Shown here piece after piece: positions 1 to 21,366 of a stretch of 64,000 nucleotides of DNA; position 1 is the stretch's first letter; every line of letters starts with the position of its first letter. The notes below the pieces were generated by a model, which saw only the letters and a list, made by a program, of their open reading frames with translations, was not told where the DNA came from and did not search any database. Made by a program: the position numbers and the translations under genes. The stretch comes from a phage. The stretch lies in NCBI GenBank assembly GCA_024875585.1, contig GCA_024875585.1_4107.1. One strand, 5' to 3'.

Positions 1-72
1 AACTTCTATTTCGATTACAGATACGTAAAGAAAGCTATAGATAACGATATTAATAAACCACACGGGGGTTGA
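1..72 (+). CDS. 3' end of an upstream family-A paralog (partial)
   Basis: In-frame translation ...NFYFDYRYVKKAIDNDINKPHGG* resembles the C-termini of downstream paralogs (e.g. SFYFDYEYVEN); stop TGA 70-72. Confidence 0.4.
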   Translation, partial: NFYFDYRYVKKAIDNDINKPHGG

Positions 73-73
73 A

Positions 74-544
74 ATGAGTTTAGAAAGAGCATTAGAGATT
101 GCGAAGTTAATTGATTTATGCAGCAAAGAAATTGTATCAAATTGTCTCAATGGATATCTATTCAAGGAAGGTAAATCATATTGTCGAATGAGATACGATG
201 ACAGTAGTGAGTATATTCACATGTATGAAGAAGACCTTGATGATTCCGAAATAACACTGAATGGGTGTGATGTTAATCTGGAAGATAATTACATTTACTT
301 CAGTCGTGGTGCTGATATTTTAATACAAGAAACATCAATTCAACATGTGAATCCAGATGTATATCTTCCATATTCAGTACTGGATAATGACTGGGGAAGT
401 GAAGAGGTTTACTTTCAGCATAATACTATCTACGATGAAGATGTGCTTGACAAGCTTGTCATTCTGTGGTACTTTAAGAACACTGATACTCCCAACTTCT
501 ATATGGATTTGGATCTACTACGAGTTATAAAAGAGGATATATGA
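74..544 (+). CDS. family-A small acidic protein (MSL..AL N-terminus; PYSVLDNDWG..EEVYFQHNTIY..LWYFK)
   Basis: 156-aa ORF, ATG after GGGGG RBS; shares N- and C-terminal motifs with the next three ORFs; ATGA overlap with next gene. Confidence 0.7.
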   Translation: MSLERALEIAKLIDLCSKEIVSNCLNGYLFKEGKSYCRMRYDDSSEYIHMYEEDLDDSEITLNGCDVNLEDNYIYFSRGADILIQETSIQHVNPDVYLPYSVLDNDWGSEEVYFQHNTIYDEDVLDKLVILWYFKNTDTPNFYMDLDLLRVIKEDI

Positions 545-984
545 GTTTAGCAAGTGCACTTAAACTGGCACACAAAATACATCACTTCCACGATAACATA
601 AAAAGTGGGTTCTATGGTGATAAAGTAAGTGCATTGGGTAATGAGTATTATCTATCAGGTATAAAGACATACTCTGATGATATTTTACTTATGGGACATG
701 ATAAAGACAATACTATACAGTACTCTTCATGTAGTCAATATACTAGTTTTATGGTATATATTCCAGGTACTAAGATTACGTTTGACACATCAAATTCACC
801 TGTTGACTTCGGGGTACTTGATGGCCCGTGGGGTACTGAAGAGTATTACTTCCAACAGAGTCTTATTTTCAACCAAGAAATTCTTGATTCCTTGGTTGTT
901 TTGTGGTACTTTAAGGAATTGAATTTTGAACCATTCTTTCTTGACTGGGGAGCATGTGAGTATTTAAGTACAGGGGATTTGTAA
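541..984 (+). CDS. family-A small acidic protein (EEYYFQQSLIF..LWYFK)
   Basis: 147-aa ORF, start/stop coupling both sides, conserved family motif. Confidence 0.7.
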   Translation: MSLASALKLAHKIHHFHDNIKSGFYGDKVSALGNEYYLSGIKTYSDDILLMGHDKDNTIQYSSCSQYTSFMVYIPGTKITFDTSNSPVDFGVLDGPWGTEEYYFQQSLIFNQEILDSLVVLWYFKELNFEPFFLDWGACEYLSTGDL

Positions 985-1472
985 TGTCGTTACAAAGTGC
1001 ATTAAAAGAAGCAAAGAAAATCCATGAGTACATGATTATGGTACAAGAAGGTTCAGTCCCAGGTGTGTATAAAACATCTGATACTGAATTTTTTGTAAAA
1101 GACCGTGACGATTATGATGAGTCAGAGATATGTGCAGAAACGTTAGTACTGCACACTGATACTGGTGATAGTGATAACTGTGAATATCATATGTACAATC
1201 AGTACATTAGTTATTGCCGTAATGAAGATATTACCATCTACAACACAGATATTGATGCTGATGACACTATCATTCCGTATTCAGTACTGGAAGGTCCGTG
1301 GGATAGTGAAGGGTATTACTTTCAGAATAGTACTATCTACAATGAAGAAGAACTGGATGTTATTGTGATTATGTGGTACTTTAAAAGTATTGACTCCAGT
1401 AGTTTCTATTTTGATTATGAATATGTAGAGAATACAGTAGGAGAAGGTAATGTCATTACAAAGTGCTCTTGA
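984..1472 (+). CDS. family-A small acidic protein (EGYYFQNSTIY..MWYFK)
   Basis: 162-aa ORF, TAATG coupling, conserved family motif. Confidence 0.7.
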   Translation: MSLQSALKEAKKIHEYMIMVQEGSVPGVYKTSDTEFFVKDRDDYDESEICAETLVLHTDTGDSDNCEYHMYNQYISYCRNEDITIYNTDIDADDTIIPYSVLEGPWDSEGYYFQNSTIYNEEELDVIVIMWYFKSIDSSSFYFDYEYVENTVGEGNVITKCS

Positions 1473-1896
1473 AAAAGCAAAAGAAATACATGGATACTTT
1501 GAAGATATAAAGGCAGGAAAGTTCAAAGAAGTATACAAAGCCGAGAACGGTAACTACTACAAAGATGAAATATATAATAATTCCGTTGGTGTAAGGGTTA
1601 TTCTTGAGTTGAATTCCAATAGTCCTGTGTCGTTTTCTGAATACAATAGAGATGCAGAATTCATTAGTTATGTTGAAAATGGTAGCATTCGTTTTATTAA
1701 TAGACAAAAACCATTAATTTTGAATTATGAAGTTCTGGATGGTCAGTGGGATAATGAAGAGTATTACTTCCAAAACAGTACTGTATACGACGATGAAGTA
1801 CTTGAAGCATTAGTTATTATGTGGTACTTCAAGAGTATTAACTGTCCTCGATTTTATTTGGATTTCGAAGAACTTGGTAAAGATCCAGAGGTATAG
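1450..1896 (+). CDS. family-A small acidic protein (EEYYFQNSTVY..MWYFK)
   Basis: 148-aa ORF with conserved MSLQSAL N-terminus and family motif. Confidence 0.7.
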   Translation: MSLQSALEKAKEIHGYFEDIKAGKFKEVYKAENGNYYKDEIYNNSVGVRVILELNSNSPVSFSEYNRDAEFISYVENGSIRFINRQKPLILNYEVLDGQWDNEEYYFQNSTVYDDEVLEALVIMWYFKSINCPRFYLDFEELGKDPEV

Positions 1897-1897
1897 A

Positions 1898-2212
1898 ATG
1901 AAAAACTTATTCAGTGTTCAGTACGTTCCAGGTGAAATTAGTTTATTGTATCTCTTTGACCATGATAATTCATTATTACTAGTAGTAAAGAAATGTCAAG
2001 CTAGTTCGTTTGTTGAATACATTCACGATAATGAATATATACCTGATTTTTTAGAGTGCGATTATTACGATGATCATGAATCATTTATTTTTCAGGAATC
2101 GCTAGTATGGGACAAATCGATTAACTTCTTTACGTTAATTGAATTACAAAAGCAAGTGAAGTATCATTGGGATTATTTAATTACACAGGATTACATTGAG
2201 ATAGAAATATAA
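1898..2212 (+). CDS. family-A-like protein (ESFIFQESLVWD)
   Basis: ORF; ATG at 1898 preceded by GAGG; divergent family motif. Confidence 0.55.
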   Translation: MKNLFSVQYVPGEISLLYLFDHDNSLLLVVKKCQASSFVEYIHDNEYIPDFLECDYYDDHESFIFQESLVWDKSINFFTLIELQKQVKYHWDYLITQDYIEIEI

Positions 2213-2515: not shown

Positions 2516-2965
2516 ATGAGTTACGAAAGTGCAATCAAGAAAGCAAATGATATTCTACGCGTCGTTCAATTCTTCAAAGAAAATCCTGAATACGTAGATG
2601 ATAAAAACCAAGAGCACGATGAGAGATTGAGACGAAAAATTATCTCTTTATTTGACACTAATAAAGATAATTGGAGTCTAATTGAGTTAGCATACGATTA
2701 TATTTCATTGAACCGAAATGATGATGTAGTTAAGATAGAAAGGCATGAGTCAGAAGAATCTTTTAGAATTTCAGATATTTTATCCCTGAGTACTGAAGAA
2801 GGGTACTTCCAGGGTAGCACTCTTTATAATGAAGAAACACTTGACAATCTATGCACATTCAGTGTAATATATCAGAAATCTGTACTAGATATATTTTATC
2901 TTGACACTGCTGAACTGCATACCCTAACCAATTTTGTTACTACCGAAGAGGCTACATTCGAGTGA
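2516..2965 (+). CDS. family-A small acidic protein (EEGYFQGSTLY)
   Basis: 149-aa ORF, family motif. Confidence 0.65.
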   Translation: MSYESAIKKANDILRVVQFFKENPEYVDDKNQEHDERLRRKIISLFDTNKDNWSLIELAYDYISLNRNDDVVKIERHESEESFRISDILSLSTEEGYFQGSTLYNEETLDNLCTFSVIYQKSVLDIFYLDTAELHTLTNFVTTEEATFE

Positions 2966-3498
2966 TGAAAGTTAACATTAATGACTTTGATGCATTACAA
3001 GATTTATCAAAAAAGATTCGCACCATCGTACCAGTACTTAAAAAATGCAGTACTGGTTTAATCGATCCTAGTTCTGTTGTCAATGAGAAGTACAATTTTC
3101 ATCGTGTATTACAGGGGACAGGTGCATTTCAGAAGTGTGAGGTACGTGAGAAACATGTAATTGATACATCGTTGTTTTCTATTGGTGCACCTGTGTCAAA
3201 CAATACTATTTTCCTGGATGCCGCTGGAAATATTCAACAATTAACATTTAAGAAAAGGAAAAAGAATAATAACATTGGTGTGTACGAGATGAAGTGGGGA
3301 CAGCCAGAGTTGATGCGTGACATTCACATTCCTAAGTACAATTTCAATGCATTTGAAGAACAGTGTTTTCAACTTTCTTGTACTGACCCTGACTATGCTA
3401 TCATTCAATTCTATATGGAATTGCAGATTGCATTTAATAGTAATTTGTATATTAACTTATTGGCAATGAACATAGATGAAGTATTCAAAAACATTTAA
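2962..3498 (+). CDS. family-A-like protein (EEQCFQLSCTDPDY)
   Basis: 178-aa ORF, ATGA overlap, divergent motif. Confidence 0.55.
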   Translation: MMKVNINDFDALQDLSKKIRTIVPVLKKCSTGLIDPSSVVNEKYNFHRVLQGTGAFQKCEVREKHVIDTSLFSIGAPVSNNTIFLDAAGNIQQLTFKKRKKNNNIGVYEMKWGQPELMRDIHIPKYNFNAFEEQCFQLSCTDPDYAIIQFYMELQIAFNSNLYINLLAMNIDEVFKNI

Positions 3499-3694
3499 TC
3501 GAATTGAATACATGAGAACTGTGAGAGCGGTGTGGAATATATGGTACACTACTAAACCAAAAATGGATTACCATGATTTTAAGCTCTTGTTCTTTGTTGG
3601 CTCTAACAAACAGGATGTTGCAATGAAGGGTTATATTCAGCACTTACAGGAACTAATCCAGAAGAGAATATATGAAAATAATAGACCAAAATGA
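3476..3694 (+). CDS. hypothetical protein
   Basis: 72-aa ORF in operon-like context; no recognisable motif. Confidence 0.4.
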   Translation: MKYSKTFNRIEYMRTVRAVWNIWYTTKPKMDYHDFKLLFFVGSNKQDVAMKGYIQHLQELIQKRIYENNRPK

Positions 3695-3863
3695 CATTGC
3701 TAAACTATTCAATATATATTCTACTAGAATGATGCAAACAGATTCATATAGTACTAAATTCAAAGAGTTGAAAGTACTGATGTACTTGGGAACACAATAT
3801 CAGGAACAAGTTATTTTAGAATATATTAATTCATTAAAGAAGGATATCCGTGATGTACGATGA
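3672..3863 (+). CDS. hypothetical protein
   Basis: 63-aa ORF; overlaps neighbours. Confidence 0.4.
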   Translation: MKIIDQNDIAKLFNIYSTRMMQTDSYSTKFKELKVLMYLGTQYQEQVILEYINSLKKDIRDVR

Positions 3864-4413
3864 TTTAGATCTTGCGTTTGAACGCATGAAAATTTTAATG
3901 CAATGCAATGAAATGCATGAGACAATCCGTCGCACCAAAGGGATTGAATATACAAGTAAACTATTCTCATACGAAAGTCGTCGAGGGATGGATCATTTTT
4001 ACTGCACTGATTGTTCAAAGTTTTCAGTACTGAAATATTATCATCCTACTGTTTCCAATAATAGTTTAATATCCACATATGACGGTGATCTGTTTAGTGT
4101 AATGTATGACACATTACATCCATCAATTTCAATATATAAAGATTGCGATAGTAGTCTATCGTATATAATTGAAGATTACTTATCTCCTAATACTGAAGAG
4201 AATATATTTCAAAACAGTGTATTGCATGATGAATTAAGTATAAAATGCATCTATATGTTCAATAAGTTAAAAGAATACGTTGATAATAATTACTTAATTG
4301 ATGAGTTAGCTGTGTTTTCGGTTTCAGTTTTCAATACAAATGATGTTGATATGAAATACTATAACGAAATTTGTAAAGTACATAACATGTATAAGGAACT
4401 CTTATGCTACTAA
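3850..4413 (+). CDS. family-A-like protein (ENIFQNSVLHDE)
   Basis: 187-aa ORF, motif. Confidence 0.6.
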   Translation: MMYDDLDLAFERMKILMQCNEMHETIRRTKGIEYTSKLFSYESRRGMDHFYCTDCSKFSVLKYYHPTVSNNSLISTYDGDLFSVMYDTLHPSISIYKDCDSSLSYIIEDYLSPNTEENIFQNSVLHDELSIKCIYMFNKLKEYVDNNYLIDELAVFSVSVFNTNDVDMKYYNEICKVHNMYKELLCY

Positions 4414-5006
4414 ATGCCAATAAATGTTGTAGTGCAAATGTGCATTTGTTTTTTAAGAAATTGGCAAATGATATTATATATATGCAGGAAATGATTTACC
4501 ACAAACGAACAGATTTAGAAAAAGCATTAGGACAGTTCTCATTTATGCTTGATGGTGATATATTTCTACATGGTGATACATTGCGAACAGTACTGGACGG
4601 AAATTCAAATAGAAGTTTCATTTGTACAAATAATAAATTTTCTTCCCCGATGTGCCGTACTTTTTATAATCCTGATTCGGACTTATATCAAGTGTCGTAT
4701 TCTAAAGGTGCAATTGAATCATCATATTGTGATAGTTCAGCTTTAGGTAAAAGTCGTCCATATATGCAATCATTTGAAATTGAACTCATCAGTACTGATG
4801 AAGATGCAATGTTCACAAATGATATAACGATGGATCGTGAATCGGCAATGATATATATTACAAATTCTATGCATACATTCTTTCAACGATTAGAATTTGA
4901 TAATGTATATATATCAAATGTAAATATTTTCAATGATCTGTGTCAGTACTTGAAAAGTGTTTGTGATTTTGATGAAAGCTATTGTAAGCTTTATACTGAG
5001 GTATAA
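4404..5006 (+). CDS. hypothetical protein (divergent family-A-like, EDAMFTNDI)
   Basis: 200-aa ORF. Confidence 0.5.
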   Translation: MLLNANKCCSANVHLFFKKLANDIIYMQEMIYHKRTDLEKALGQFSFMLDGDIFLHGDTLRTVLDGNSNRSFICTNNKFSSPMCRTFYNPDSDLYQVSYSKGAIESSYCDSSALGKSRPYMQSFEIELISTDEDAMFTNDITMDRESAMIYITNSMHTFFQRLEFDNVYISNVNIFNDLCQYLKSVCDFDESYCKLYTEV

Positions 5007-5011: not shown

Positions 5012-5374
5012 ATGAACACATTAAGTATTACATACTATACAACTAAAAAATTAGTTACTTGTTTAATATCATTGAAGTCAAAAAATGATGATATGTTTGA
5101 TATGGCTGCATATGAATTAGAATTATCAGAAGATGGTTTCAAGATCTATGAAGTATATAGCTATGTTCGTGAAGATGTAATTGACACTACACTAATGCAA
5201 GAGGATGAGTTATTCCAAGAAAGTTTAGTATGGGATAATAAGTACGATTGTAACTTTGATTTCTTATGTTTAATCCAAAAAGAAATGAAAAGAATCTTTG
5301 ATAATTATCCAATCAAACGTTTCAGTACTGCACCTGAGCAATATAAAAGGATTATATTCACCTATGAAGATTGA
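5012..5374 (+). CDS. family-A-like protein (DELFQESLVWDN)
   Basis: 120-aa ORF, motif. Confidence 0.6.
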   Translation: MNTLSITYYTTKKLVTCLISLKSKNDDMFDMAAYELELSEDGFKIYEVYSYVREDVIDTTLMQEDELFQESLVWDNKYDCNFDFLCLIQKEMKRIFDNYPIKRFSTAPEQYKRIIFTYED

Positions 5375-5741
5375 ATTTGAAGTTATTACATATAGTATAG
5401 GTGATGGTATCCGTTGCTACGTACAAGCAAGGCATATTGTTCCTGATGATAAACTGTCACCCAAAAGTTTCCTTATTACACAAGAACTCTTAGATATTAA
5501 CAGAGAGAACAAGTATACATATTATCTCACTAAGGGTTATTGTGGTTCGCGTGGATTTAATATTGTAGCTGTTTCTAGAGATGAAATTGATGATTTAACT
5601 GAGTACGGTGAAGAAGAGATGTTCCAGTACAGTACTGTTTTTAATGAACTGGATGTGTTTCTGTTACGAAAAATACAACACATTATGCAAGAATGTTTGC
5701 ATCATAAGAGAGGTATTGTATGCGACGTGAATCTGAATTAG
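5364..5741 (+). CDS. family-A protein (EEMFQYSTVF)
   Basis: ORF; start moved to ATG 5364 (track start 5298 would overlap the previous gene extensively). Confidence 0.55.
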   Translation: MKIEFEVITYSIGDGIRCYVQARHIVPDDKLSPKSFLITQELLDINRENKYTYYLTKGYCGSRGFNIVAVSRDEIDDLTEYGEEEMFQYSTVFNELDVFLLRKIQHIMQECLHHKRGIVCDVNLN

Positions 5742-6061
5742 TTAAAGTAATGTACGCTACTCATATTAAACTACTACTTGTGAAATTTGATTATAATATA
5801 AAACATAATGATTTCTATACGTTGATTCGTGATGAAAATTCATTCTCATTGCGATGCAACAATATACAGTGGACGATAAGTGATTTTACTTCACTTGACG
5901 AGGGTGAATTATTTCAAGAATCATTAGTTTTTAATAGTAATATAAAAGTTGATATAGAAGCAATTAAACAGTATCAAATATTATTAAACAAAATTATTGA
6001 TTGTTATCCATGTGAAATAGGTGGTCATATGCAGTTCAAATCAAAAATGTACGAGTTATGA
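5720..6061 (+). CDS. family-A-like protein (GELFQESLVF)
   Basis: 113-aa ORF, motif. Confidence 0.55.
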   Translation: MRRESELVKVMYATHIKLLLVKFDYNIKHNDFYTLIRDENSFSLRCNNIQWTISDFTSLDEGELFQESLVFNSNIKVDIEAIKQYQILLNKIIDCYPCEIGGHMQFKSKMYEL

Positions 6062-6068
6062 GGTCTTT

Positions 6069-6605
6069 ATGTTAGATAAAAAAATGAACACTGGAACTCT
6101 ATACAATCATCTTAAGTTGGATACTTTCGAATCAGCTATCAGTACTGCACAAGATATTATCGATATTATTAAGTACATTAAAGAAAATAAGTTAAAATGT
6201 GTGAAAACACCCGAACGTACAATGTATAAAGATGACTGTATTCACGTATCTGTTGTTAATCCAAAAGATAAGGATGGTAATAGAGATTTCTATAATAACA
6301 GTGAGCAGTTCGAATGTGAATATGATCCAGAATTCAGAGGTGGTTTCATGTGTTACAGTATGAAGGATACCTCACACATTGAGATACGTTCATCTAAAGG
6401 TGGCATACGTACATTAGAGTTCATTGATATAGTTTTAAATCAGGAATACTACTTTCAACTATCATTATTGTTTCCTGCATACGATTTAGGAGTTCTATTC
6501 ATGTATAAGTACTTTCATGAGCACTGGAATGAAGACTTCTATCTGGACTTAGAAGATTACCAATTAGTTTGGGAAGAAATGGTAGAACTTCGCAACCACT
6601 CTTGA
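6069..6605 (+). CDS. family-A protein (QEYYFQLSLLF)
   Basis: ORF; ATG 6069 after GAGG; motif. Confidence 0.6.
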   Translation: MLDKKMNTGTLYNHLKLDTFESAISTAQDIIDIIKYIKENKLKCVKTPERTMYKDDCIHVSVVNPKDKDGNRDFYNNSEQFECEYDPEFRGGFMCYSMKDTSHIEIRSSKGGIRTLEFIDIVLNQEYYFQLSLLFPAYDLGVLFMYKYFHEHWNEDFYLDLEDYQLVWEEMVELRNHS

Positions 6606-6631
6606 CACCCACCGATTTTTTGTGATATAAT
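6602..6631 (+). promoter_or_regulatory. sigma70-type promoter TTGACA-N18-TGaTATAAT (extended -10)
   Basis: TTGACA 6602-6607, TG 6623-6624, TATAAT 6626-6631, in the intergenic gap before ORF 6665; followed by a 5'UTR hairpin ccctttata...taaaggg. Confidence 0.6.
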
Positions 6632-6664: not shown

Positions 6665-7141
6665 ATGTCCAACGAACTCACATTCACCAATGCACAAAAA
6701 ATAGCAAAAGACATTATCAGGGTTTATAAATTCCTTGCGAATGTTACTGAAGATTTTTTAATTGATAAAAATAAAGTTATTAAGCGAAATGGATACCTTT
6801 CCTTTATGGATGGGTTGCTCTATAGTTCAGATGAGTCAGCTTGTAGTATTAGAGTACTTGATACTGTACCAAGTGGTGATTTTATTTCATACCATTTTCC
6901 AAGTTCAGATAAGTTCAAATACTACAATAGTATTCTCATAGCAGAAGACTTTGATACGATTGTAATTAACACTGAAGAAGAGTTCTTCCAGTACAGTACT
7001 GTGTACCCAGAGAGGATTGTTTTCAGTTCAGTGATTTACACTACCCTTAAAAATGAACTAAATTCCGATAGTGATCATTTCTACTTGGACCTGAATAATA
7101 TCGATTGTATTATTGAGTACATGGAGAAAAATGGTTTATGA
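6665..7141 (+). CDS. family-A protein (EEEFFQYSTVY)
   Basis: 158-aa ORF, motif. Confidence 0.65.
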   Translation: MSNELTFTNAQKIAKDIIRVYKFLANVTEDFLIDKNKVIKRNGYLSFMDGLLYSSDESACSIRVLDTVPSGDFISYHFPSSDKFKYYNSILIAEDFDTIVINTEEEFFQYSTVYPERIVFSSVIYTTLKNELNSDSDHFYLDLNNIDCIIEYMEKNGL

Positions 7142-7641
7142 TTACTACAGAATATGATTACAATAGTGTCCTTGAATTTGCAGAAAATATATATCGTATT
7201 GCAAAGGAGTTCAGAAGTCCTGAGCCGTTTGGTGGTATGTTCGAATACGATGAGTTTAGTTCATCAAAAGGAAGACTTGCATTTACTAATGGTAGAGGTA
7301 ATCAAATCTACACAGAGTACTTTGATGACAATGACTTTCATCACAAAGCCGAATACATTTCATATTGCCCTGGGTCTGATTTGAAGATTCATATTGAAAG
7401 AGATATAGAAAATGTATTTGTTCCATATACTGATTTAGTCTTCATGTCAGAGGAAATGTACTTTCAGGAATCATTGATTCATGATACAAAAGTACTTAAT
7501 ACTATATTATTATATGGTACACTACTTAATCATTACAAATACAATCAAAGATTCTTTTTAGATTTAGTAGTATACCATCAATGTGTGGATTATTTGAATG
7601 CAAAATCAGACAACAATTCAGTACATGACCGATGGTTCTGA
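7138..7641 (+). CDS. family-A protein (EEMYFQESLIHD)
   Basis: 167-aa ORF, ATGA overlap, motif. Confidence 0.65.
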   Translation: MITTEYDYNSVLEFAENIYRIAKEFRSPEPFGGMFEYDEFSSSKGRLAFTNGRGNQIYTEYFDDNDFHHKAEYISYCPGSDLKIHIERDIENVFVPYTDLVFMSEEMYFQESLIHDTKVLNTILLYGTLLNHYKYNQRFFLDLVVYHQCVDYLNAKSDNNSVHDRWF

Positions 7642-10436: not shown

Positions 10437-10460
10437 AGACCCGTTATGGGTCTTTTTGTG
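10437..10460 (+). terminator. rho-independent terminator
   Basis: hairpin agaccc-gttat-gggtct followed by TTTTT. Confidence 0.7.
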
Positions 10461-10468: not shown

Positions 10469-10497
10469 TTTACAAGAGCATTCAGGTGTGTTATACT
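10469..10497 (+). promoter_or_regulatory. sigma70-type promoter TTTACA-N17-TATACT with upstream TG
   Basis: TTTACA 10469-10474, TATACT 10492-10497, between a terminator and the next ORF. Confidence 0.5.
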
Positions 10498-13171: not shown

Positions 13172-13736
13172 TTTTTTTAAATGTTTAGTACACCCTATGC
13201 TTAGTGTTATGAAAAAATTACAGAATCTACCGGAAGACAACGATTACAAGTTTAATCGTTTTGATTCAGATGTGTTTTGTATTGAAATGGAAATTAATAA
13301 TAATCGTAATTTGCATTTAAAATTCAAAGAATCGTCAAGTCCGTATTACAACTTTGATATGAATTTTAAAATAGATACTGACATTGAAGAAAACGTAATA
13401 TCAAATCATACTAGCAAAAATGGTTTTAAGCATAGAACTACTATGTACAATAATAAAAATAGTATTATATCTAAATGGTTTCACCAATTCACCAAAATTG
13501 GTGAAATTGAATATAGTGATTTTGGTGAAGAGCAATACTTTCAGTTGAGTACAATTCATGAACTTCCACCATATGATTATGTTAAAACATGGTTTGATAT
13601 TCATAATATAATTGATGATGCAATCAAACTTCCATTTGGGGTATCAATATCATATACTGCTCCTAAAACATTTGTTTTTACGGAAGATATGATTATGAAA
13701 AAGATATGGGCAATTATCCCACTTATGATGGATTAA
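13155..13736 (+). CDS. family-A protein (EEQYFQLSTIHE)
   Basis: 193-aa ORF. Confidence 0.6.
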   Translation: MKITNDFFKCLVHPMLSVMKKLQNLPEDNDYKFNRFDSDVFCIEMEINNNRNLHLKFKESSSPYYNFDMNFKIDTDIEENVISNHTSKNGFKHRTTMYNNKNSIISKWFHQFTKIGEIEYSDFGEEQYFQLSTIHELPPYDYVKTWFDIHNIIDDAIKLPFGVSISYTAPKTFVFTEDMIMKKIWAIIPLMMD

Positions 13737-13741
13737 ATTTA

Positions 13742-13768
13742 TACCAGGGGTTGACTCTGGTATTTTTG
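13742..13768 (+). terminator. rho-independent terminator
   Basis: hairpin taccag-gggttgact-ctggta then TTTTT. Confidence 0.55.
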
Positions 13769-13797: not shown

Positions 13798-14349
13798 ATG
13801 AACTACAATCATGATCTTTTTACATTATGTGCATCAAAATGTGTTGATGGTTGGGCAGATAAAATCAATACCATAATTCATCGATATCTCGTCTTTAGTT
13901 CCCGTGCACGAAGTGAGGGGGCTATGGATTTCAAATATACACTATCTATTGATGGTGTAACTATCCATGCAGACGAAGAACGTCTGAGCATTAATTTGTA
14001 TGATTCCTGTGTATTTGCTATTCACCAAAAGATGGGGAAAGGATGGGGTTGTAATAACATTAACTCCAAAGCTATCTTTTGGGTTGGTCACCATCAGACA
14101 GTACTTGATCCTTCAATTAAATCTAATCTTTTATCCGATAATATGGTTTATGATTTATTGTACTCCGAAGAACAACATTTTCAATTAAGTACATTGCATG
14201 ATCTGGCACAGTACGAGGATTGTTACAAAACATTAGAACTATGCCATTCCCTTGAACTCAAAGATAAATTGATACAAGTTTACCCTTCATTCTTTCATGA
14301 AGAAGTACAATGCACACTAGAACATATTTTATATGGGTACGACAAATGA
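13798..14349 (+). CDS. family-A protein (EEQHFQLSTLHD)
   Basis: 183-aa ORF with AAAGGAG RBS. Confidence 0.65.
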   Translation: MNYNHDLFTLCASKCVDGWADKINTIIHRYLVFSSRARSEGAMDFKYTLSIDGVTIHADEERLSINLYDSCVFAIHQKMGKGWGCNNINSKAIFWVGHHQTVLDPSIKSNLLSDNMVYDLLYSEEQHFQLSTLHDLAQYEDCYKTLELCHSLELKDKLIQVYPSFFHEEVQCTLEHILYGYDK

Positions 14350-14948
14350 GAAAAAGTTATCAAGAAACTATTGACCTAATTAGAGAAGTTATTAAAGTGG
14401 CTCCTGGTGCGATAGCATTCAAGAAGTCCCTATATAAAAAGTATGGCTCCATGTCAAATATGTGTTGTCAAAAGAAACGTAGTAAATTCACTACGCAGTA
14501 CTGGCATGATTCTATTATCCTTAGTAATGAACATCAGCGTATTTTAACACTAGAATCTGAACCTAATGAGTACGAGGAAGGAAACATTTGTGTACCTGAT
14601 TATGATGAAATTAACTTCAACTGCGGTGATTTTGAAACAACATTATTACTTCACGAGGGTTATCCAGAAGGTGATGTATTAGCTGAGTACAATCCAAAAA
14701 CTAAAATTCTCAAAAGAGGAATCCAGTTCACTATTAATAACAAAGATGATGTTGAAGCAGCACTAATGCAACTGAGTACAAGTGAACCTATTACTATTAG
14801 TGTAGAAGAGTTATGGGGAATTATTTCAGTCCTCAATGAATGCTACAAAGTAAAATCATTGCGTAATCACACCCTTATATTGCATACTAATATGGCAAAT
14901 ATAAAATGTAAGCACATTCAAGAAATGGCGGTTCCAGATGGACTTTAA
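14346..14948 (+). CDS. family-A-like protein (EAALMQLSTSEP)
   Basis: ORF; start ATG 14346 in ATGA overlap. Confidence 0.55.
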   Translation: MRKSYQETIDLIREVIKVAPGAIAFKKSLYKKYGSMSNMCCQKKRSKFTTQYWHDSIILSNEHQRILTLESEPNEYEEGNICVPDYDEINFNCGDFETTLLLHEGYPEGDVLAEYNPKTKILKRGIQFTINNKDDVEAALMQLSTSEPITISVEELWGIISVLNECYKVKSLRNHTLILHTNMANIKCKHIQEMAVPDGL

Positions 14949-15531
14949 AGAAATTGAAAGTAAATTAAAGTACTTCAAAGATATCAAACTTCTTTGGGAA
15001 AAGTATAAAATTGATTACAAATTCAGTGATGATGAGACAATAAAATCCATTGATATTAATATCAAAATCAAGTTCAAGAATAATAATTATGGTGAAGTAA
15101 GCTTAAATCATACTGGTGTATCACTCAGGGACTATGATGGTTCAACACTCGCATATTTCGACTTCATTCCAGAACCAGGTGAAACACTACTTAGTGAGAT
15201 AAATTCCTATGATATGGAAATATTCGGCGGGAATCCGTTACTGTTCCGACTGTCTGAAGAGTGGAGTGAAGAATACTACACTTACAAAGATGGTGTAGTA
15301 CTTGACATTAATGGAGAAGTTGTGAATGACTTGGAAGAACGTTTGTTCCAAGAATTGTGTGTTTCAAATACTTCATATGCATACAATCATATCCTTGACA
15401 TGTTTGATTTATATAGTAAAATAGATGCTGAAATGAATGCACATGGTATTCATTACCTTACAATTAACGACTATGCACAACTCGAAACCGCTGTGACAGC
15501 ATTGTCTAAAGTACTGAAAATAGGAACGTAA
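14938..15531 (+). CDS. family-A-like protein (EERLFQELCVSN)
   Basis: 197-aa ORF. Confidence 0.55.
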   Translation: MDFKEIESKLKYFKDIKLLWEKYKIDYKFSDDETIKSIDINIKIKFKNNNYGEVSLNHTGVSLRDYDGSTLAYFDFIPEPGETLLSEINSYDMEIFGGNPLLFRLSEEWSEEYYTYKDGVVLDINGEVVNDLEERLFQELCVSNTSYAYNHILDMFDLYSKIDAEMNAHGIHYLTINDYAQLETAVTALSKVLKIGT

Positions 15532-15532: not shown

Positions 15533-15946
15533 ATGAAACTGTACCATGCGAGTACTGTAAAAATTGATAACTTTTATATCCCGTATGGTGGCCTTCATAT
15601 GGGAGGCAAACATAGTGCTTTGGAAGCTGCATTACGCAAGCTAAGAAGCCCACTGAACGTTGTTGATGCTGATACAGTATACTTGCATACCTTAGAAGTG
15701 GACATTGATAACGTGCTTCTGTGTGAAGATTTAGGTAGTGATGATGAGTGGCGTTCACTTATTGAGAATTGCACTGCTCAAGGTTATGATGCTGTTCAGT
15801 ACAAAAATGATTACGAGCCAGACAATGTTCCTAGCTTTATGATTTGGGATGCATCTAAAGTTCGCATCATTGAAGTTGATGCTATGCATATGGATGATGC
15901 TGAAATGATTATCGAAGATTTTCTTGATGAATATGAAGGTGTATAA
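15533..15946 (+). CDS. hypothetical protein (unrelated to family A, locally GC-richer)
   Basis: 137-aa ORF. Confidence 0.55.
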   Translation: MKLYHASTVKIDNFYIPYGGLHMGGKHSALEAALRKLRSPLNVVDADTVYLHTLEVDIDNVLLCEDLGSDDEWRSLIENCTAQGYDAVQYKNDYEPDNVPSFMIWDASKVRIIEVDAMHMDDAEMIIEDFLDEYEGV

Positions 15947-16482
15947 TGTCTGACCCGATGGTAGCACTGGCACGTACTAAATTACTATTAAAGATTGGTG
16001 AGATATTCACAGATCTTCTGTGCAATAAAATTGATATTACCGAGCTAGATATTAAGCAACCGTGGGAAGTGAGTATGTTCTCGGCGTTTCACCGATTGTC
16101 ATATAAAGGTGAAAGTGTTCTTGATTTTAACCCCAAAGCTAAATTCATAGATTATGCCGCGTTGTACAGAGCATTGCACCGAAATAGTTATTCAGGTTGT
16201 ATAACAAATAACTTTGAACGAATTCAAGTTCAAACTGCATCACATGAGTTCAATGATTTACTCTATCCAGAATTTAATCTAACTGAAGAATTACTTTTTC
16301 AGTACTCGTTAATTCTCACAAATCTAGAATCACTCGAGTACTACACAAAGTTAGTAGATATTTTTATGAATACACGACTTTCAAAAGATATTGTGATATT
16401 CTGGTATACAGAGCATGTTACGGAGGAATTGCTTACTGAATTTCTTCTAAATATGACAGCTATAAAGGAGAAGTTATGTTAG
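15946..16482 (+). CDS. family-A-like protein (EELLFQYSLIL)
   Basis: 178-aa ORF. Confidence 0.6.
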   Translation: MSDPMVALARTKLLLKIGEIFTDLLCNKIDITELDIKQPWEVSMFSAFHRLSYKGESVLDFNPKAKFIDYAALYRALHRNSYSGCITNNFERIQVQTASHEFNDLLYPEFNLTEELLFQYSLILTNLESLEYYTKLVDIFMNTRLSKDIVIFWYTEHVTEELLTEFLLNMTAIKEKLC

Positions 16483-16949
16483 ATATTTTAGGAAACATCG
16501 ATACTGCAAATTATTTTATCCAAGACGCACTGTTTAATACACTACAAAAAGGTTTAGAAGTTCGTCACAATGTATACCAAGGTGATGGTTATTTCGTTGA
16601 TATTGTTGAGGCACGAAAGAATACGTTTAATCTTAACATTACGACGCTTGGAAGACAGAACATTGCACGAATTTTAGTAAGTAAAGATGAAATAGTACTG
16701 AGATACAGTGCTAAGTTTATGTTGACGTACAAGAAAAAAACTGACATGTTCAGTACTAATTTATTTGATGAGCCATTTGACCTTGAAGATATTGAAGCTA
16801 CCTTCTTTACTCAAAGTACTATGGTAAAATACACTGATGTTCAATTTTCATCAGACGTTATGTCTGAAACATTACAAATGATCAAGGTATTATTTTATGC
16901 ATTTGAGCAATTCAGAGAAGAAAGAAATAAGGTTAACAACCACAGATGA
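16476..16949 (+). CDS. family-A-like protein (EATFFTQSTMV)
   Basis: 157-aa ORF. Confidence 0.5.
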   Translation: MLDILGNIDTANYFIQDALFNTLQKGLEVRHNVYQGDGYFVDIVEARKNTFNLNITTLGRQNIARILVSKDEIVLRYSAKFMLTYKKKTDMFSTNLFDEPFDLEDIEATFFTQSTMVKYTDVQFSSDVMSETLQMIKVLFYAFEQFREERNKVNNHR

Positions 16950-17310
16950 ACTAATAGAGGCGATCACTAAGGATTCAAAATACCATAAAGGTATTCGTCT
17001 ATACTTTATAGATAATGGTTCGATGGAAGGTACATACATTTATGGTTCACAATCATTGTCTTATGATGCAATGCCAGATAAACATGTTAAAATCTTTCTA
17101 GGTTCAAGTAATAAAACTTTCTTGACAATTAATGATAACAGTGTTATTATGAATTCCCTGGGTCATGACAAAGTAGAAATTGACCTAAACACATTAGAAG
17201 AAATGGATTTTTTTCAATACGAGTGTTTAGGCGTTGACTTACATGGTATCAGTAGTGATATGATAAAATCATTAATTAAATATTTCGAAGGTGTTTATAA
17301 ATGTATCTAA
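16897..17310 (+). CDS. family-A-like protein (EEMDFFQYECLG)
   Basis: 137-aa ORF; start uncertain (overlaps previous by about 50 nt). Confidence 0.45.
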   Translation: MHLSNSEKKEIRLTTTDELIEAITKDSKYHKGIRLYFIDNGSMEGTYIYGSQSLSYDAMPDKHVKIFLGSSNKTFLTINDNSVIMNSLGHDKVEIDLNTLEEMDFFQYECLGVDLHGISSDMIKSLIKYFEGVYKCI

Positions 17311-17807
17311 CTAAATCGATGAAAAATTCATTAGATAATATAAAGAGTGTAATTAGTGGTGAGTATATTGCTAGTGTAACACAAACTGCTGACCAGATAC
17401 AAAGTAGTTCTAGTGATTGTACTGTGATTCTCGGTTTACACAGTCTACGTTTATCAATAGTAAATAATATTGACAACACTGCTATTGTAATCACACCATG
17501 TCATATTCAAAATGAGAATGGTGTATATCTTCATCACATGGGAACAGTATTTTACATTTTCAATACAAACAATACACTCGAAACAATTATCAAAGAATAT
17601 AATACACTTAACATTGATCCGGGTGAATTATTTCAGATGAGTACGTTGTATTCATGTGATTTTACAGATACCTCACATATTTTACCATTTTTCTTGGAAA
17701 TTCTAAAGAAAATGGAAAAATTAAATCGTGAATACAATAAAAAAATGGTTCCAGAAGCTATATTAAATATTACTGATGCTATGAAAAAATATAAAGCAGT
17801 GCCTTAA
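17301..17807 (+). CDS. family-A-like protein (GELFQMSTLY)
   Basis: 168-aa ORF. Confidence 0.55.
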   Translation: MYLTKSMKNSLDNIKSVISGEYIASVTQTADQIQSSSSDCTVILGLHSLRLSIVNNIDNTAIVITPCHIQNENGVYLHHMGTVFYIFNTNNTLETIIKEYNTLNIDPGELFQMSTLYSCDFTDTSHILPFFLEILKKMEKLNREYNKKMVPEAILNITDAMKKYKAVP

Positions 17808-17851: not shown

Positions 17852-18325
17852 ATGGAGATTAAAACTGTTGAAAATGGGAAAATTGATGACATTTTAGACT
17901 TGGACGCATTCAAAGTTCATGATATAATGTTTAATGTGAAGGACATTATTCAATGTCTGTTTTTATGCAGCAAGACTATGCATGATTTTTTTCACAACCC
18001 GAATACTAATGTTTTTATACTTACAATCAGTACTGAAAACTCGTTCATCATGGGTATGCCCATGAGTACAAATGAACAGTATATTGATTGTGTTATTCGC
18101 AATAATGATTGTATTACCCCACAATCTGAAGTTCGCAAAAAGAAAAACACTTACACAATCAAAGATGATAAAATCATGATGTGTTGCAGTAAAGGATTTA
18201 TATTGGACAATTTCATCGTCAAAGATAGTTATCATGACTTTAAAATTTCCGAAAATCAATCCAATGTAGTTCTTTATGCTAGTGATATCGAAAGTTTAAC
18301 AGTCAAAGATCCTAGTTTGGAGTAA
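17852..18325 (+). CDS. hypothetical protein
   Basis: 157-aa ORF with AAGGATAG RBS. Confidence 0.55.
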   Translation: MEIKTVENGKIDDILDLDAFKVHDIMFNVKDIIQCLFLCSKTMHDFFHNPNTNVFILTISTENSFIMGMPMSTNEQYIDCVIRNNDCITPQSEVRKKKNTYTIKDDKIMMCCSKGFILDNFIVKDSYHDFKISENQSNVVLYASDIESLTVKDPSLE

Positions 18326-18327
18326 GT

Positions 18328-18459
18328 ATGGCTAAGAAAGTAAACAATTTCGTACAGAAACACATGAATGAGTTTAACAAGCCTCAGACACATGTGGATC
18401 GTAAAAAAGAAATGAAAAATGGTAAAGTAAAACACAAGTCGAGATTTATTCTCGACTAA
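18328..18459 (+). CDS. small Lys-rich protein (43 aa)
   Basis: ATG 18328 after GGAG RBS; MAKKVNNFVQKH...; below the ORF-track length cutoff. Confidence 0.35.
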   Translation: MAKKVNNFVQKHMNEFNKPQTHVDRKKEMKNGKVKHKSRFILD

Positions 18460-18466: not shown

Positions 18467-18488
18467 TCTAAATTTTTGAGGATTGTAT

Positions 18489-19337
18489 ATGTTGGACATT
18501 TCAGATTTTCTTAATTTTAAAAAGTATTCAGTACTTGAACATATCAACGAATTTCTGAATTCCCCAACACCATTTGGTATCAGTACATCAGATTCATACG
18601 ATGGATATAGAATCTTCCCATGCAATGACTTTCAAATTTCTGTCAAAAAAGGTTTTACAAAAGAAGTTGCAATTCGTGATGTAGTAATGTATAGCGATTC
18701 TTCTATTTCTTACTGTCATGATGTGAACAATTTTGAATCTCTTTCAACACCTAATTGTTCATACTACAAATCCCATGACACGATGATGTATAAAGAACAA
18801 CATATCAATGGTGTTTCGTTCTACAAAACTAGCAGTGATAAATCATATACATCTAGAGATGATTTTGGAAAATACACATGTACTATGCACACGGATAATG
18901 AAAAAACAAATTACACTCATTCATTCGAGTCCAAATTCCAAGAGAGTGAAGTTTCAAATATCACTATACAAGAACAGGTTTCAGAAGGCATTGTATATCG
19001 TAGTACTGCATTCTTTCGCATGAAAGATGTTGCCACAGGCAGACCAATGATGTACAATATTGACATATACATGAAAGGTGATATATCAGAAGTAGTGATT
19101 AGTACTGGTTATCGTGAAAAATATACAGTTACAATGGAATCACCAGATGCATCGTTAGTTCACCTCTTTAACAATTTATATACATTCCAATTCGAACTTA
19201 GTTTAGACTACAATGAATATCAAATATTCGATATATTAAAAAGTAATATTATTAATAAGTTAGAATATTACTACAAGTTAGGTGGTAAGATGTGCATAGT
19301 TAATACTATGTTACATAACATAAAAGAAACATTATAA
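18489..19337 (+). CDS. hypothetical protein
   Basis: ORF; ATG 18489 after GAGGA. Confidence 0.6.
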   Translation: MLDISDFLNFKKYSVLEHINEFLNSPTPFGISTSDSYDGYRIFPCNDFQISVKKGFTKEVAIRDVVMYSDSSISYCHDVNNFESLSTPNCSYYKSHDTMMYKEQHINGVSFYKTSSDKSYTSRDDFGKYTCTMHTDNEKTNYTHSFESKFQESEVSNITIQEQVSEGIVYRSTAFFRMKDVATGRPMMYNIDIYMKGDISEVVISTGYREKYTVTMESPDASLVHLFNNLYTFQFELSLDYNEYQIFDILKSNIINKLEYYYKLGGKMCIVNTMLHNIKETL

Positions 19338-19353
19338 ATCTGGAGGATTTGGT

Positions 19354-19647
19354 ATGGATACTAAATTCAAAATTATTTTTAAAACTAAGCCGTATATTCC
19401 ACATACAGCAGAACGTTTTATACCACATGATGCAGAGGAAATTATTCATCAAGATGGTACAAAGTTATATCTAGTGCCATGTTCATATGAACGTGCAGTA
19501 GAAATGTTACTCATGAATTCTAAATTATGTACAAACAAGTACATTAGTTACTTATATAATGAACATATTTTAGATTTTAATGATGAAAATATGTTTATTC
19601 TGGCAATTGAAGATTTTAATAATTGGTACAACATTATTAAAATCTGA
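19354..19647 (+). CDS. hypothetical protein
   Basis: 97-aa ORF with GGAGGA RBS. Confidence 0.55.
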   Translation: MDTKFKIIFKTKPYIPHTAERFIPHDAEEIIHQDGTKLYLVPCSYERAVEMLLMNSKLCTNKYISYLYNEHILDFNDENMFILAIEDFNNWYNIIKI

Positions 19648-19654
19648 TAAAATA

Positions 19655-19685
19655 TTGTGAACATATTAAATCTTTATGATATAAT
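19655..19685 (+). promoter_or_regulatory. promoter with extended -10 TGATATAAT flanked by an inverted repeat
   Basis: TTGTGA 19655-19660, TGATATAAT 19677-19685; inverted repeat tgtgaacat / atgttcaca brackets the -10. Confidence 0.5.
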
Positions 19686-19717
19686 GTTCACATCTTTTTT
19701 TGATAATGGAGATATAG

Positions 19718-20104
19718 ATGAATACAAGTTCAATCCTAAAAGCAATTGGTGGTGTTTTACTTATTGAAGTGAAAGGTGAACCAAAACTGTGCTGTTTGGA
19801 AGATATGAAGAATACAAAACACTTCAGTACTGGTCAGATTTTTAATGCCATTCGTGTTCTAAATGATAAATCAATCGCTGATTATGGTAAAGTTTGGCCT
19901 GTATATCAAAACGCAGATGGTGATATCAGTTCTGACTGGAAAACCATTGAAGCAGTCCGACAAAGTTGTGATAGCGACTGGGACTTCATTGTAGAAGTAT
20001 GTGACCAACTTCAAGAAGATGTACCAGAAATTGTGGAACGAAAGGAAGTTCTGGCAAATCTAGAAAAGTTCCGTCATGGAACACTACCATATGATACAAT
20101 CTAA
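19718..20104 (+). CDS. hypothetical protein
   Basis: 128-aa ORF. Confidence 0.55.
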   Translation: MNTSSILKAIGGVLLIEVKGEPKLCCLEDMKNTKHFSTGQIFNAIRVLNDKSIADYGKVWPVYQNADGDISSDWKTIEAVRQSCDSDWDFIVEVCDQLQEDVPEIVERKEVLANLEKFRHGTLPYDTI

Positions 20105-20154
20105 TCTACTTATTAAAAAATAGCTAGTTAACATTATATAAAAAGGAATTTAAA

Positions 20155-20460
20155 ATGGAAGATAATGGAATGAAATTTGATATGTTTGAGGGTGTACCTG
20201 AGTTTGATTTTAACAAACTAGAAAATGGTGAAGAGTCAGAACTCGTTAGTGTTACACTTAAAGCAGATTCTAAAAAGAAATATTCATCAACGGTACGTTC
20301 ACGTTCACAAGAAGAATATGAATCTTTCATTGAAAGTATTCATTATGAAACATTATATCATAAAGATGGAACTCCATATGAAGTACGTGTAACAGTACTG
20401 AAGCCTGAAGTGAATCCAATGGAAAATCTACGTCCTGTTTACTGCTGGGCAAGTCACTAA
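20155..20460 (+). CDS. hypothetical protein
   Basis: 101-aa ORF with AAAGGAA RBS. Confidence 0.55.
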   Translation: MEDNGMKFDMFEGVPEFDFNKLENGEESELVSVTLKADSKKKYSSTVRSRSQEEYESFIESIHYETLYHKDGTPYEVRVTVLKPEVNPMENLRPVYCWASH

Positions 20461-20469
20461 TAAACCAAT

Positions 20470-20498
20470 GGACGGGATTTCATATCTCGTCCTTTTTT
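20470..20498 (+). terminator. rho-independent terminator
   Basis: hairpin ggacg...cgtcc then TTTTTT. Confidence 0.55.
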
Positions 20499-20511
20499 AT
20501 ATGGAGATTTT

Positions 20512-21366
20512 ATGAAACTTTATCTAATAGTTGACTATAATAAAGAATATGCTGGAAATTTTTCTGAAGATTCAGAAGGACATTGTACCTCTACTAATGT
20601 TAATGTGCGTTCCAGTAATACACATGAGCATGAATCAATTACTAATCTAAAAAATTTCATCACATATCGAGCCTTTGAAACCAATTTTTGTCGTTCGAGA
20701 TATTCTAAGTTTGAGTACCCATTAATTGATGTTCCTGATGAATTGATGTTCCAGCTAATGTTAACTGGAGTTCAAGATTATGATTATATTGCTTATAATC
20801 ACATAACAAAGAAGATTTACATTGGAACATCAGTACACGATACTTCCATGTATGCATCATGCCCAGATGATCGAATGAAGCATAGAAATTCATACTATAG
20901 TGGATCAGTTGGTTCAAATAATTCATCAAATAAAAATTCATTCTTTGAGTACGTGTATGATTACCATCACGAGAAAAAAGAACGTGAAGATTACTGTATA
21001 GAGATTGATAGTACTAATGGATATGAAGACGTAAAAGAAGCTCTTATGCCATACATTATAGAAAAATACTACAAAGATTTTCAGTACTGTAGTAATTTTC
21101 TAATCAGAAATTCTATTCAAATCGGTCGTCAATCCACTGCATACGCTATGTACTACAGTGATTCTCCAGTTGTAGCAGGAAATGAAAGGGGTGATATCCT
21201 ACCAATTCCACGTGAAGATATGACATTCATTTTTACATCTTTTATTGAGGATGATGAATTGTACGTTAAAAATAAGCATCGTTTCATGCCAAGTAAAATT
21301 GAGATTATTAGAAGCATCAGTGTTGATATATTAACCAATTTTACTGAAAAAACTGAATATAACTGA
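20512..21366 (+). CDS. hypothetical protein with family-A-like motif (DELMFQLMLTG)
   Basis: 284-aa ORF with GGAG RBS. Confidence 0.6.
   Translation: MKLYLIVDYNKEYAGNFSEDSEGHCTSTNVNVRSSNTHEHESITNLKNFITYRAFETNFCRSRYSKFEYPLIDVPDELMFQLMLTGVQDYDYIAYNHITKKIYIGTSVHDTSMYASCPDDRMKHRNSYYSGSVGSNNSSNKNSFFEYVYDYHHEKKEREDYCIEIDSTNGYEDVKEALMPYIIEKYYKDFQYCSNFLIRNSIQIGRQSTAYAMYYSDSPVVAGNERGDILPIPREDMTFIFTSFIEDDELYVKNKHRFMPSKIEIIRSISVDILTNFTEKTEYN

Follow-up and report, generated by a model that had tools for sequence, protein, structure and literature searches.

A conserved tandem array of small paralogous proteins with an EExxFQxS motif in Asteriusvirus and related jumbo phages

We analysed a window of 64,000 nucleotides of phage DNA (contig GCA_024875585.1_4107.1 of GenBank assembly GCA_024875585.1), the left part of which encodes a tandem array of small, highly diverged paralogs, referred to here as the EExxFQxS family after their shared motif. 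Judged by its first 20 kb, which are 97.6% identical to Escherichia phage UE-S1 (Asteriusvirus, 358 kb) and match 121Q, PBECO4, G17, phAPEC6, Sharanji and ~30 other jumbo coliphages at 84–93%, the window is from an Asteriusvirus jumbo coliphage of ~350 kb. The genes under this match are labelled 'hypothetical protein' in the records of these relatives, the sole exception being a 'putative ADP-ribosyl transferase' in phage ph0011. All genes of the region are on the + strand, its GC content is ~32%, and no tRNA or Rfam RNA was detected across the whole 64-kb window. Features of the array are listed below with E-values from, unless stated otherwise, a wider hidden Markov model (HMM), which was built from the window, the corresponding loci of UE-S1, phAPEC6 and the more divergent Asteriusvirus A4, and 109 database representatives; 'window-only' denotes an HMM iterated inside the window, and pLDDT and pTM are AlphaFold's per-residue and global confidence scores.

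74–544, +, family member, recent subfamily with MSL.(S)AL N-terminus; E 3e-23; motif SEEVYFQHNT
541–984, +, family member, recent subfamily; E 1.5e-26; motif TEEYYFQQSL
984–1472, +, family member, modelled representative; E 4e-29; AlphaFold (AF2) pLDDT 84.7, pTM 0.81
1450–1896, +, family member, recent subfamily; E 1.2e-30
1874–2212, +, family member, short form; E 9e-5 (4.5e-16 with the window-only HMM)
2516–2965, +, family member; E 1.8e-22
2962–3498, +, family member, divergent (FEEQCFQLSC); iterated search converges on the family; hhalign P 3.8e-4
3850–4413, +, family member; E 1.3e-10
4404–5006, +, possible degenerate member by array position, size and degenerate motif (STDEDAMFTND); without statistical support
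5012–5374, +, family member, short form; E 6e-8
5298–5741, +, family member, probably starting downstream of 5298; E 4e-13
5720–6061, +, family member, short form; E 4.8e-8
6021–6605, +, family member; E 2.8e-28
6602–6631, +, perfect sigma-70 promoter TTGACA-18-TATAAT with TG, between genes; position conserved in phAPEC6 and A4
6665–7141, +, family member; E 2.3e-20
7138–7641, +, family member; E 4.8e-24
7598–7960, +, family member, short form; E 1.1e-11
7944–8357, +, family member; E 6e-9
8345–8839, +, family member, allele replaced between close relatives; E 1.6e-22; 67% identity and synonymous divergence (dS) 0.68 versus phAPEC6
8823–9365, +, family member, motif degenerate; iterated search converges on the family; hhalign P 3.2e-4
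9362–9925, +, family member; E 1.8e-15
9918–10436, +, family member; E 7.4e-20
10435–10455, +, intrinsic terminator, followed by promoter TTTACA-17-TATACT at 10469–10497
10513–11088, +, possible degenerate member by degenerate motif only; without statistical support
11088–11672, +, family member, allele replaced between close relatives; E 2.3e-5; 61% identity and dS 1.6 versus phAPEC6
11659–12237, +, family member; E 1.7e-10
12237–12665, +, probable member; one close homologue in related loci is an HMM member
12662–13171, +, probable member (NIEEVEFQNNT); one close homologue is an HMM member; hhalign P 5.8e-4
13155–13736, +, family member; E 3.9e-13
13741–13763, +, intrinsic terminator in an intergenic gap
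13798–14349, +, family member; E 3.3e-9
14310–14948, +, possible degenerate member, motif-like DDVEAALMQLST; without statistical support
14938–15531, +, probable member (DLEERLFQEL); one close homologue is an HMM member; hhalign P 3.6e-4
15533–15946, +, ADP-ribosyltransferase-fold protein of 137 aa, not a family member
15946–16482, +, family member; E 7e-9
16476–16949, +, possible degenerate member, motif-like EDIEATFFTQST; without statistical support
16897–17310, +, possible degenerate member, motif-like TLEEMDFFQYE; without statistical support
17301–17807, +, family member, last of the contiguous array; E 8.7e-7 (9e-26 with the window-only HMM)
18437–18457, +, terminator after the array block
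28895–29473, +, borderline outlying member (GLPEHFQISTLY); hhalign P 4.8e-4; not recruited by the HMM
29470–30159, +, outlying family member with a C-terminal extension; E 5.4e-13

An earlier note on this DNA, made by reading the letters and the translated open reading frames (ORFs), had proposed a single family of 30 or more paralogs, and 30 members are supported in the window. BLASTP with single linkage connected 13 ORFs, the HMM iterated inside the window collected 23 between 74 and 17807 (E 1e-16 to 1e-46), and the wider HMM raised this to 25 (E ≤ 1e-3) by gaining 11088–11672 and the outlier 29470–30159. Transitive or profile evidence adds five more: iterated searches seeded by 2962–3498 or 8823–9365 converge on ~200 family members, and 12237–12665, 12662–13171 and 14938–15531 each recruited one HMM member as a close homologue; moreover, for at least three of these five, and for 28895–29473, hhalign gave P of 3e-4 to 6e-4 with the alignment always on the motif. 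Six further ORFs (4404–5006, 10513–11088, 14310–14948, 16476–16949, 16897–17310 and 28895–29473) show no more than a decayed motif at the matching relative position, and membership of the first five could not be demonstrated because their homologues are too close to yield strong profiles. In the outlying pair at 28895–30159, also assigned to the family by the note, 29470–30159 is a clear member and 28895–29473 a borderline one. Non-members inside the array include the small ORFs 2212–2454 and 3476–3863, together with 17852–18325 and the ADP-ribosyltransferase (ART)-fold gene 15533–15946. At 33 of 38 junctions, neighbouring genes overlap or almost touch, consistent with the translational coupling that had been proposed. 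The extent given for the array, the first ~21 kb, did not hold: it ends at ~17.8–18.3 kb instead of 21.4 kb, ORFs at 18483–21366 being unrelated, and it runs past the left edge of the window, as in UE-S1 another 12 members occupy the ~9.5 kb upstream of window position 1, preceded by 20 kb that contain no member. The contiguous array in UE-S1 measures ~27 kb.

The motif is conserved at the protein level, as [ST]-E-E-x-x-F-Q-x-S-[TL], in agreement with the E-E-x-Y-F-Q-x-S-T core first noticed. Of 39 array ORFs, 23 contain FQx[ST], where shuffling predicts 1.18 (maximum of 5 in 1000 shuffles), and 15 contain [DE][DE]xxFQx[ST], where it predicts 0.02; the latter pattern is found in none of 88 ORFs elsewhere in the window. 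In an alignment of 23 members, F and Q never vary and conservation of S is 90% or higher, with a mean column identity of only 16%; in a 249-member profile, F reaches 96%, Q 92%, S 77% and the E-E pair 71–72%. The core, which extends to [ST]-E-E-x-x-F-Q-x-S-[TL]-[IVL], lies at 50–76% of protein length, and [ST]EExxFQxS[TL] is present in ~100 of the 109 database representatives. Conserved polar residues in the 249-member profile are limited to the motif (E124, E125, Q129 and S131 in HMM numbering), the other conserved positions being aromatic or aliphatic. Of the additional shared sequences reported, PYSVL.GPW, WYFK and MSL.SAL are present, limited to the first four, recently duplicated copies (74–1896): these have in common MSL.(S)AL, a [YF]xVL[DE]-type sequence and WYFK, and PYSVLEGPW is found in one copy.

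The window also carries a striking DNA repeat. The palindrome CAGTACTG is its commonest 8-mer, with 41 copies between 375 and 63305 against 0.78 expected, and AGTACT occurs 155 times against ~22 expected, a 7-fold excess. The CAGTACTG sites are mostly within genes, about equally in frames 1 and 2 and evenly spread over all 64 kb; their enrichment is common to UE-S1, phAPEC6, A4, Klebsiella phage Muenster (20 in 40 kb) and an uncultured relative (25 in 20 kb), and is missing from the contig bearing the most distant homologue of the ART-fold gene. CAGTACTG resembles a 'highly iterated palindrome'. By contrast to the AGTACT excess, CAGCTG, AGCGCT, ACCGGT, AGGCCT, CGATCG, CGTACG and other 6-bp palindromes have zero copies in the window, with ~5 expected of each, which suggests restriction-site avoidance.

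Since Q-x-S-T can be encoded as CAG NNN AGT ACT G, overlapping CAGTACTG, and the palindrome is so abundant, the motif might be a by-product of CAGTACTG read in one frame, or the ORFs non-functional duplicates. We give this reading virtually no weight. Only three of 23 motifs overlap a CAGTACTG copy; codons vary at the invariant residues (TTT 15 and TTC 8 for F, CAG 14 and CAA 9 for Q, AGY 16 and TCN 5 for S); the palindrome occurs in two frames across the whole window; and the ratio of nonsynonymous to synonymous substitution (dN/dS) is ~0.2. Codon analysis of the 23 motifs therefore eliminates the DNA palindrome as their sole source, and the few overlaps, the free use of synonymous codons and the window-wide occurrence of the palindrome in two frames indicate that motif and CAGTACTG are independent features.

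The description of the family as acidic is correct only to a mild degree, with a median isoelectric point (pI) of 4.85 versus 5.37 for other ORFs in the window. Net charge per 100 aa is -6.3 versus -3.6, D+E has a median of 16% and a maximum of 21%, and pI ranges from 4.05 to 9.08; Y+W+F content is 13% in the family and in other ORFs alike, and no family member has a hydrophobic stretch of membrane-spanning length. Ocr- and ArdA-type DNA mimics have D+E well above 25% and a pI of about 4 or lower. The somewhat greater acidity of the family would agree with mimics that block restriction enzymes or other DNA-binding defences, as had been suggested; its D+E content and net charge of ~-6 per 100 aa are nevertheless far from Ocr-like values, some members are neutral or basic (pI up to 9.1), the proteome of the whole region is acidic, and comparison with structures in the PDB gave no match to Ocr, ArdA or other mimics. 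DNA mimicry is thus a very improbable role.

The AlphaFold model of 984–1472 (pLDDT 84.7, pTM 0.81) starts with an N-terminal helix and continues through seven short strands and three helices to one more strand and a closing helix. The motif accounts for helix 109–115 and the turn leading into helix 121–135, and is the best-predicted part (block pLDDT 94–98). The predicted fold matches nothing solved, including SUKH-type and other immunity-protein families, and would appear to be a novel small alpha/beta domain. Nor did searches of Pfam, NCBIfam, PADLOC and PDB sequences with single members and with the profile return anything significant, PADLOC giving three single-member matches only (E 0.005–0.03), and no enzyme match was found by fold or sequence. 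PHROGs divides the family into many groups of 'unknown function' (9317, 12674, 34017, 28549, 13866 and others). The literature searched contains no description of the family or motif, in line with its not having been recognised at first sight.

Two other accounts of the motif were set aside. One, that members are degenerate ARTs, considered because of their F-Q-x-S-T and E-E residues, is contradicted by the fold and by the absence of the motif order R/H … S-T-S/Y … E. The other, a TEV/3C-type protease cleavage site (E-x-x-Y-x-Q followed by S/G), does not fit a motif that is helical and confidently folded with S at P2' and not P1', no protease search having been made. A third, that the paralogs are small enzymes with a Glu-Glu … Gln … Ser active site, each specialised for its own substrate, accounts for the clustering and near-invariance of E124, E125, Q129 and S131 in both the 249 members and the 109 database representatives; since active sites usually draw on several segments, the confinement of all conserved polar residues to one predicted helical stretch of eight residues argues against it, as do the lack of any enzyme match and the loss of Q or S in several apparently maintained members, and we consider it improbable.

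Outside the window, the family is confined to a narrow set of phages. A profile search of 1.84 billion representative proteins gave only 109 matches, of 65–208 aa, with a single matched stretch in all except one, which has two. The named ones are Asteriusvirus proteins or 'E. coli' proteins on phage-sized contigs of ~350 kb, distant representatives are on metagenomic contigs of up to 100–356 kb, and all matches that were traced are on jumbo-phage records or large contigs. Structure matches in BFVD came only from 121Q, RaK2, GAP32, Serratia phage BF and Yersinia phages fHe-Yen9-03/04. Klebsiella phage Muenster (Alcyoneusvirus) has 28 HMM matches and seven motif-only ORFs in a syntenic block just inside its 20-kb terminal repeat, and an uncultured relative with 37% GC has 10 HMM matches and five motif-only ORFs in 20 kb. 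The HMM consensus gave no match in tblastn, a distant metagenomic representative matched Muenster only, and tblastn did not bear out the mention of 'Phi92_gp213' in the ph0011 record. Copies found by the HMM number 36 in the UE-S1 locus, 39 in phAPEC6 and 40 in A4, and about 36–44 distinct copies are kept per genome across the phage and its relatives.

These copies are old and individually maintained. Every member has a positional orthologue in phAPEC6, in gene-for-gene synteny, with a median dN/dS of 0.20 (0.17 for neighbouring genes), and the copies are hence individually useful and not redundant. Gene-wide positive selection is ruled out by these ratios, and the notion of a diversifying family, taken as positive selection, was not borne out given the synteny and the age of the duplications. 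Relative to A4, gene order is largely kept, and 26 of 30 members are closer to the collinear A4 gene than to any paralog in their own genome; the same is true of 18 of 30 for the Muenster gene. Most duplications are therefore older than the split from A4 and many older than that from Alcyoneusvirus, the only recent duplicates being the first four copies. The family evolves faster than its neighbours over long distances, with 33% identity to A4 versus an average of 57% for neighbouring non-family genes, and up to 90% for Dam and the embedded ART. In the comparison with phAPEC6, four genes (8345–8839, 11088–11672, 28256–28540 and 32333–32647) are 36–67% identical with high dS in surroundings of ~93% identity, which indicates gene-sized allele replacement between otherwise close phages; as both dN and dS are high, the two in the array (8345–8839 and 11088–11672) reflect replacement by recombination and not positive selection.

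Promoters and terminators were placed in the few intergenic gaps of the array. The promoters at 6602–6631 and 10469–10497 are at orthologous positions in phAPEC6 and A4, where the flanking proteins are only ~30% identical, and this conservation of sigma-70/extended -10 promoters points to transcription by unmodified host RNA polymerase. From these elements we infer that the array genes would be expressed early, in several translationally coupled operons; no transcriptome for this phage group was found in the literature searched. The phAPEC6 virion contains 62 proteins by mass spectrometry, and none is among the orthologues gp404c–gp466c (PMC7247149). A virion component thus finds no support, and the family products are probably not part of the virion.

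The phage might nonetheless use these proteins internally, as assembly chaperones, or to build a structure inside the cell on which replication or the morphogenesis of its very large virion depends. Across genera, the array keeps the number and order of its copies and stays under purifying selection, which is closer to core machinery than to fast-turnover counter-defence genes. On the other side are the missing virion signal, promoters of the sigma-70 type, no adjoining structural genes, a long-distance divergence exceeding that of neighbouring genes, and the swapping of single alleles between close relatives. We regard an internal role as quite unlikely.

The gene at 15533–15946 (137 aa), embedded in the array, is an ART-fold protein and a putative enzyme. 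It is annotated 'putative ADP-ribosyl transferase' in the ph0011 and Muenster records, in the latter on the basis of an HHpred match to 4GV2_A at 99.8%; with HMMER and against PDB and Pfam we obtained no match, and the annotation was not confirmed by these searches. Across 41 homologues, H22, Y90, N92 and E95 never vary and conservation of H5 and S7 is 90% or higher; a catalytic triad of the H-Y-E type may lie among these residues. The gene is flanked by one HMM member and one probable member, with overlapping or abutting frames, and every lineage examined that has the array, among them ph0011, A4, Muenster and the uncultured relative, carries the gene within it; no family member lies beside the most distant homologue, on a 7.5-kb contig.

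This arrangement raises an alternative in which the paralogs are partners of the ART-fold enzyme, acting as targeting adaptors, regulators or substrates; all of them would share EExxFQxS as a docking or acceptor site, the host target being selected by the variable part. The enzyme is minimal, has no visible targeting domain and recurs inside the array across lineages, the metagenomic contigs that bear it and those that bear the family are equal in size (28486, 27858 and 21831 bp), and a single short conserved motif on divergent proteins is how a shared docking site would be expected to look. Linkage could also be just inherited synteny among related phages, the most distant homologue lacks a family neighbour, and one enzyme with ~40 partners is without precedent. 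This alternative appears unlikely. An extension of it, to which we assign a low probability, is a combinatorial host-modification system of ~40 paralogs and ART, in which the EExxFQxS helix docks with the enzyme or gets ADP-ribosylated and the protein bodies deliver or shield the enzyme for each host protein; such a system would give the phage a targeting repertoire of its own, built on a fold not seen before.

Downstream, the window encodes Dam, a T4-type RNA ligase 1 (Rnl1) and PNKP, and further on a DNA ligase, PhoH-PIN and NrdD. Rnl1 and PNKP are the T4 tRNA-repair pair that counters the anticodon nuclease PrrC. By its gene content, the neighbourhood is thus one of putative host manipulation and counter-defence, and the conserved sigma-70 promoters, the lack of virion detection, the embedded ART-fold gene and the downstream Rnl1 and PNKP all fit the setting of host takeover or anti-defence that the earlier note had envisaged.

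Several other features of the region were observed. At 21367–21689, 323 nt without an ORF of at least 60 aa open with an extended -10 element, TTAATGATATAATGT, directly followed by a strong hairpin and T-run, GGTGACAGTATATACTGTCACCTTTTTTT; an element of this segment, ATGATATAATGT, is seen again at ~17918 and ~19675, and the segment matched no Rfam family or tRNA. Five ORFs in a row at 24869–26278 (+), of 91–103 aa and mutually linked by BLASTP, form another, smaller paralog family. The sole large minus-strand gene of the window, 46074–48746 (-), falls in a stretch of raised local GC (0.388) and encodes 890 aa with about nine Big_2 Ig-like repeats; its product may be a virion decoration or adhesin protein. 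In A4, the array copy contains a 471-aa gene annotated 'methyl-accepting chemotaxis protein' (22909–24321 of that locus), with HNH endonuclease genes just downstream, neither having a counterpart at the corresponding window positions.

The reading we favour, tentatively and at a probability of about 0.4, is that the paralogs are early, soluble host-protein binders on one conserved scaffold, each copy specialised for a different partner. The array arose long ago, through expansion of a single, apparently novel small alpha/beta domain among RaK2-like jumbo phages (Asteriusvirus, Alcyoneusvirus and uncultured relatives). Host sigma-70 RNA polymerase would transcribe it early, as several coupled operons, and the products would be soluble, cytoplasmic and outside the virion. 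Only the eight-residue motif and a hydrophobic/aromatic core are conserved across 249 members, which argues for a scaffold with variable surfaces: the helix-turn [ST]EExxFQxS[TL] and a few aromatic strand residues would hold the fold together or provide a common site, and each copy would use the rest of its sequence, which is highly variable, to recognise a different host protein, be it a defence component or part of the housekeeping machinery, that would thereby be neutralised or redirected. Binding as the activity and host proteins as its targets are what we infer from this pattern. Several points weigh against it. The fold comes from a single AlphaFold model built on 23 paralogs; a stable, syntenic array across genera could have a conserved housekeeping role instead, known anti-defence proteins turning over fast; and Gln and Ser, invariant and close to two Glu, might serve in catalysis or ligand binding instead of stapling the structure together. 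Probability left over from all the readings weighed here belongs to functions not among them.

Whichever reading holds, the ~27-kb array commits ~8% of the 358-kb UE-S1 genome to one protein family that databases do not name, in a phage group of therapeutic-candidate jumbo phages (121Q, PBECO4, phAPEC6 and RaK2 relatives), and 36–44 copies under purifying selection across genera imply that each is different and useful. Should they be host-protein binders, they would supply a ready set of probes or inhibitors against Enterobacterial proteins and defence systems, and a concrete entry point for studying cell takeover by jumbo phages that have no nucleus. The family merits a Pfam entry at the very least, would unite more than ten PHROGs and would give a name to dozens of 'hypothetical protein' annotations per genome.

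Expansion on this scale was thought unusual for a phage, and the literature agrees: in a survey of 224 jumbo phages, a ~35-copy zinc ribbon expansion in Bacillus phage G was called 'unprecedented' (Iyer et al., 2021; PMC7824862). That case is likewise one of a jumbo phage with one small domain in ~35 copies and of unknown function (PMC7824862); its zinc ribbon, however, has a recognisable fold and is a proposed DNA binder, whereas the EExxFQxS family has no recognisable fold and spans several genera rather than one phage. Within the same phage group, 'nearly 10% of gene products are paralogues' in RaK2 (PMC3622015), a statement that probably includes members of the EExxFQxS family, and 22 paralogous ORFs were reported in CBB (PMC5259590). 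The family, its motif, size, array structure and conservation were not defined in those papers.

T4-like early accessory regions carry small early genes, mostly without an assigned function, behind sigma-70 promoters. Both these regions and anti-defence islands, such as the 'anti-defense island' in KVP40-like phages (PMC12028318), resemble the locus described here in having small sigma-70-driven genes beside counter-defence genes (here the ART-fold gene, Rnl1 and PNKP). Such regions are mosaics of unrelated, rapidly turning-over genes; the EExxFQxS array is one homologous family in fixed order. In tandem immunity-protein arrays (SUKH/SMI1-KNR4), small diverged cytoplasmic alpha+beta paralogs are each thought to neutralise a different protein, and these arrays of polymorphic-toxin systems share with the EExxFQxS array the tandem arrangement of small, diverged, cytoplasmic paralogs.

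In the poxvirus Bcl-2-like and ankyrin families and the MGF360/505 families of African swine fever virus, tandem diverged paralogs are expressed early, each binding a different host factor, as we propose for the EExxFQxS paralogs. They are the closest analogues, with tens of tandem paralogs on one fold, non-virion and in an accessory block, and differ from the EExxFQxS array, which is in a bacteriophage, has an unrelated fold and is syntenic and stable across genera, whereas theirs often vary in copy number. Like them, the array has many tandem paralogs in one viral lineage, with copies individually under selection, and is a viral multigene family. Altogether, the viral multigene family phenomenon was already known; what is new is the EExxFQxS family, its motif, the apparent novelty of its fold and its conserved array of 36–44 copies.

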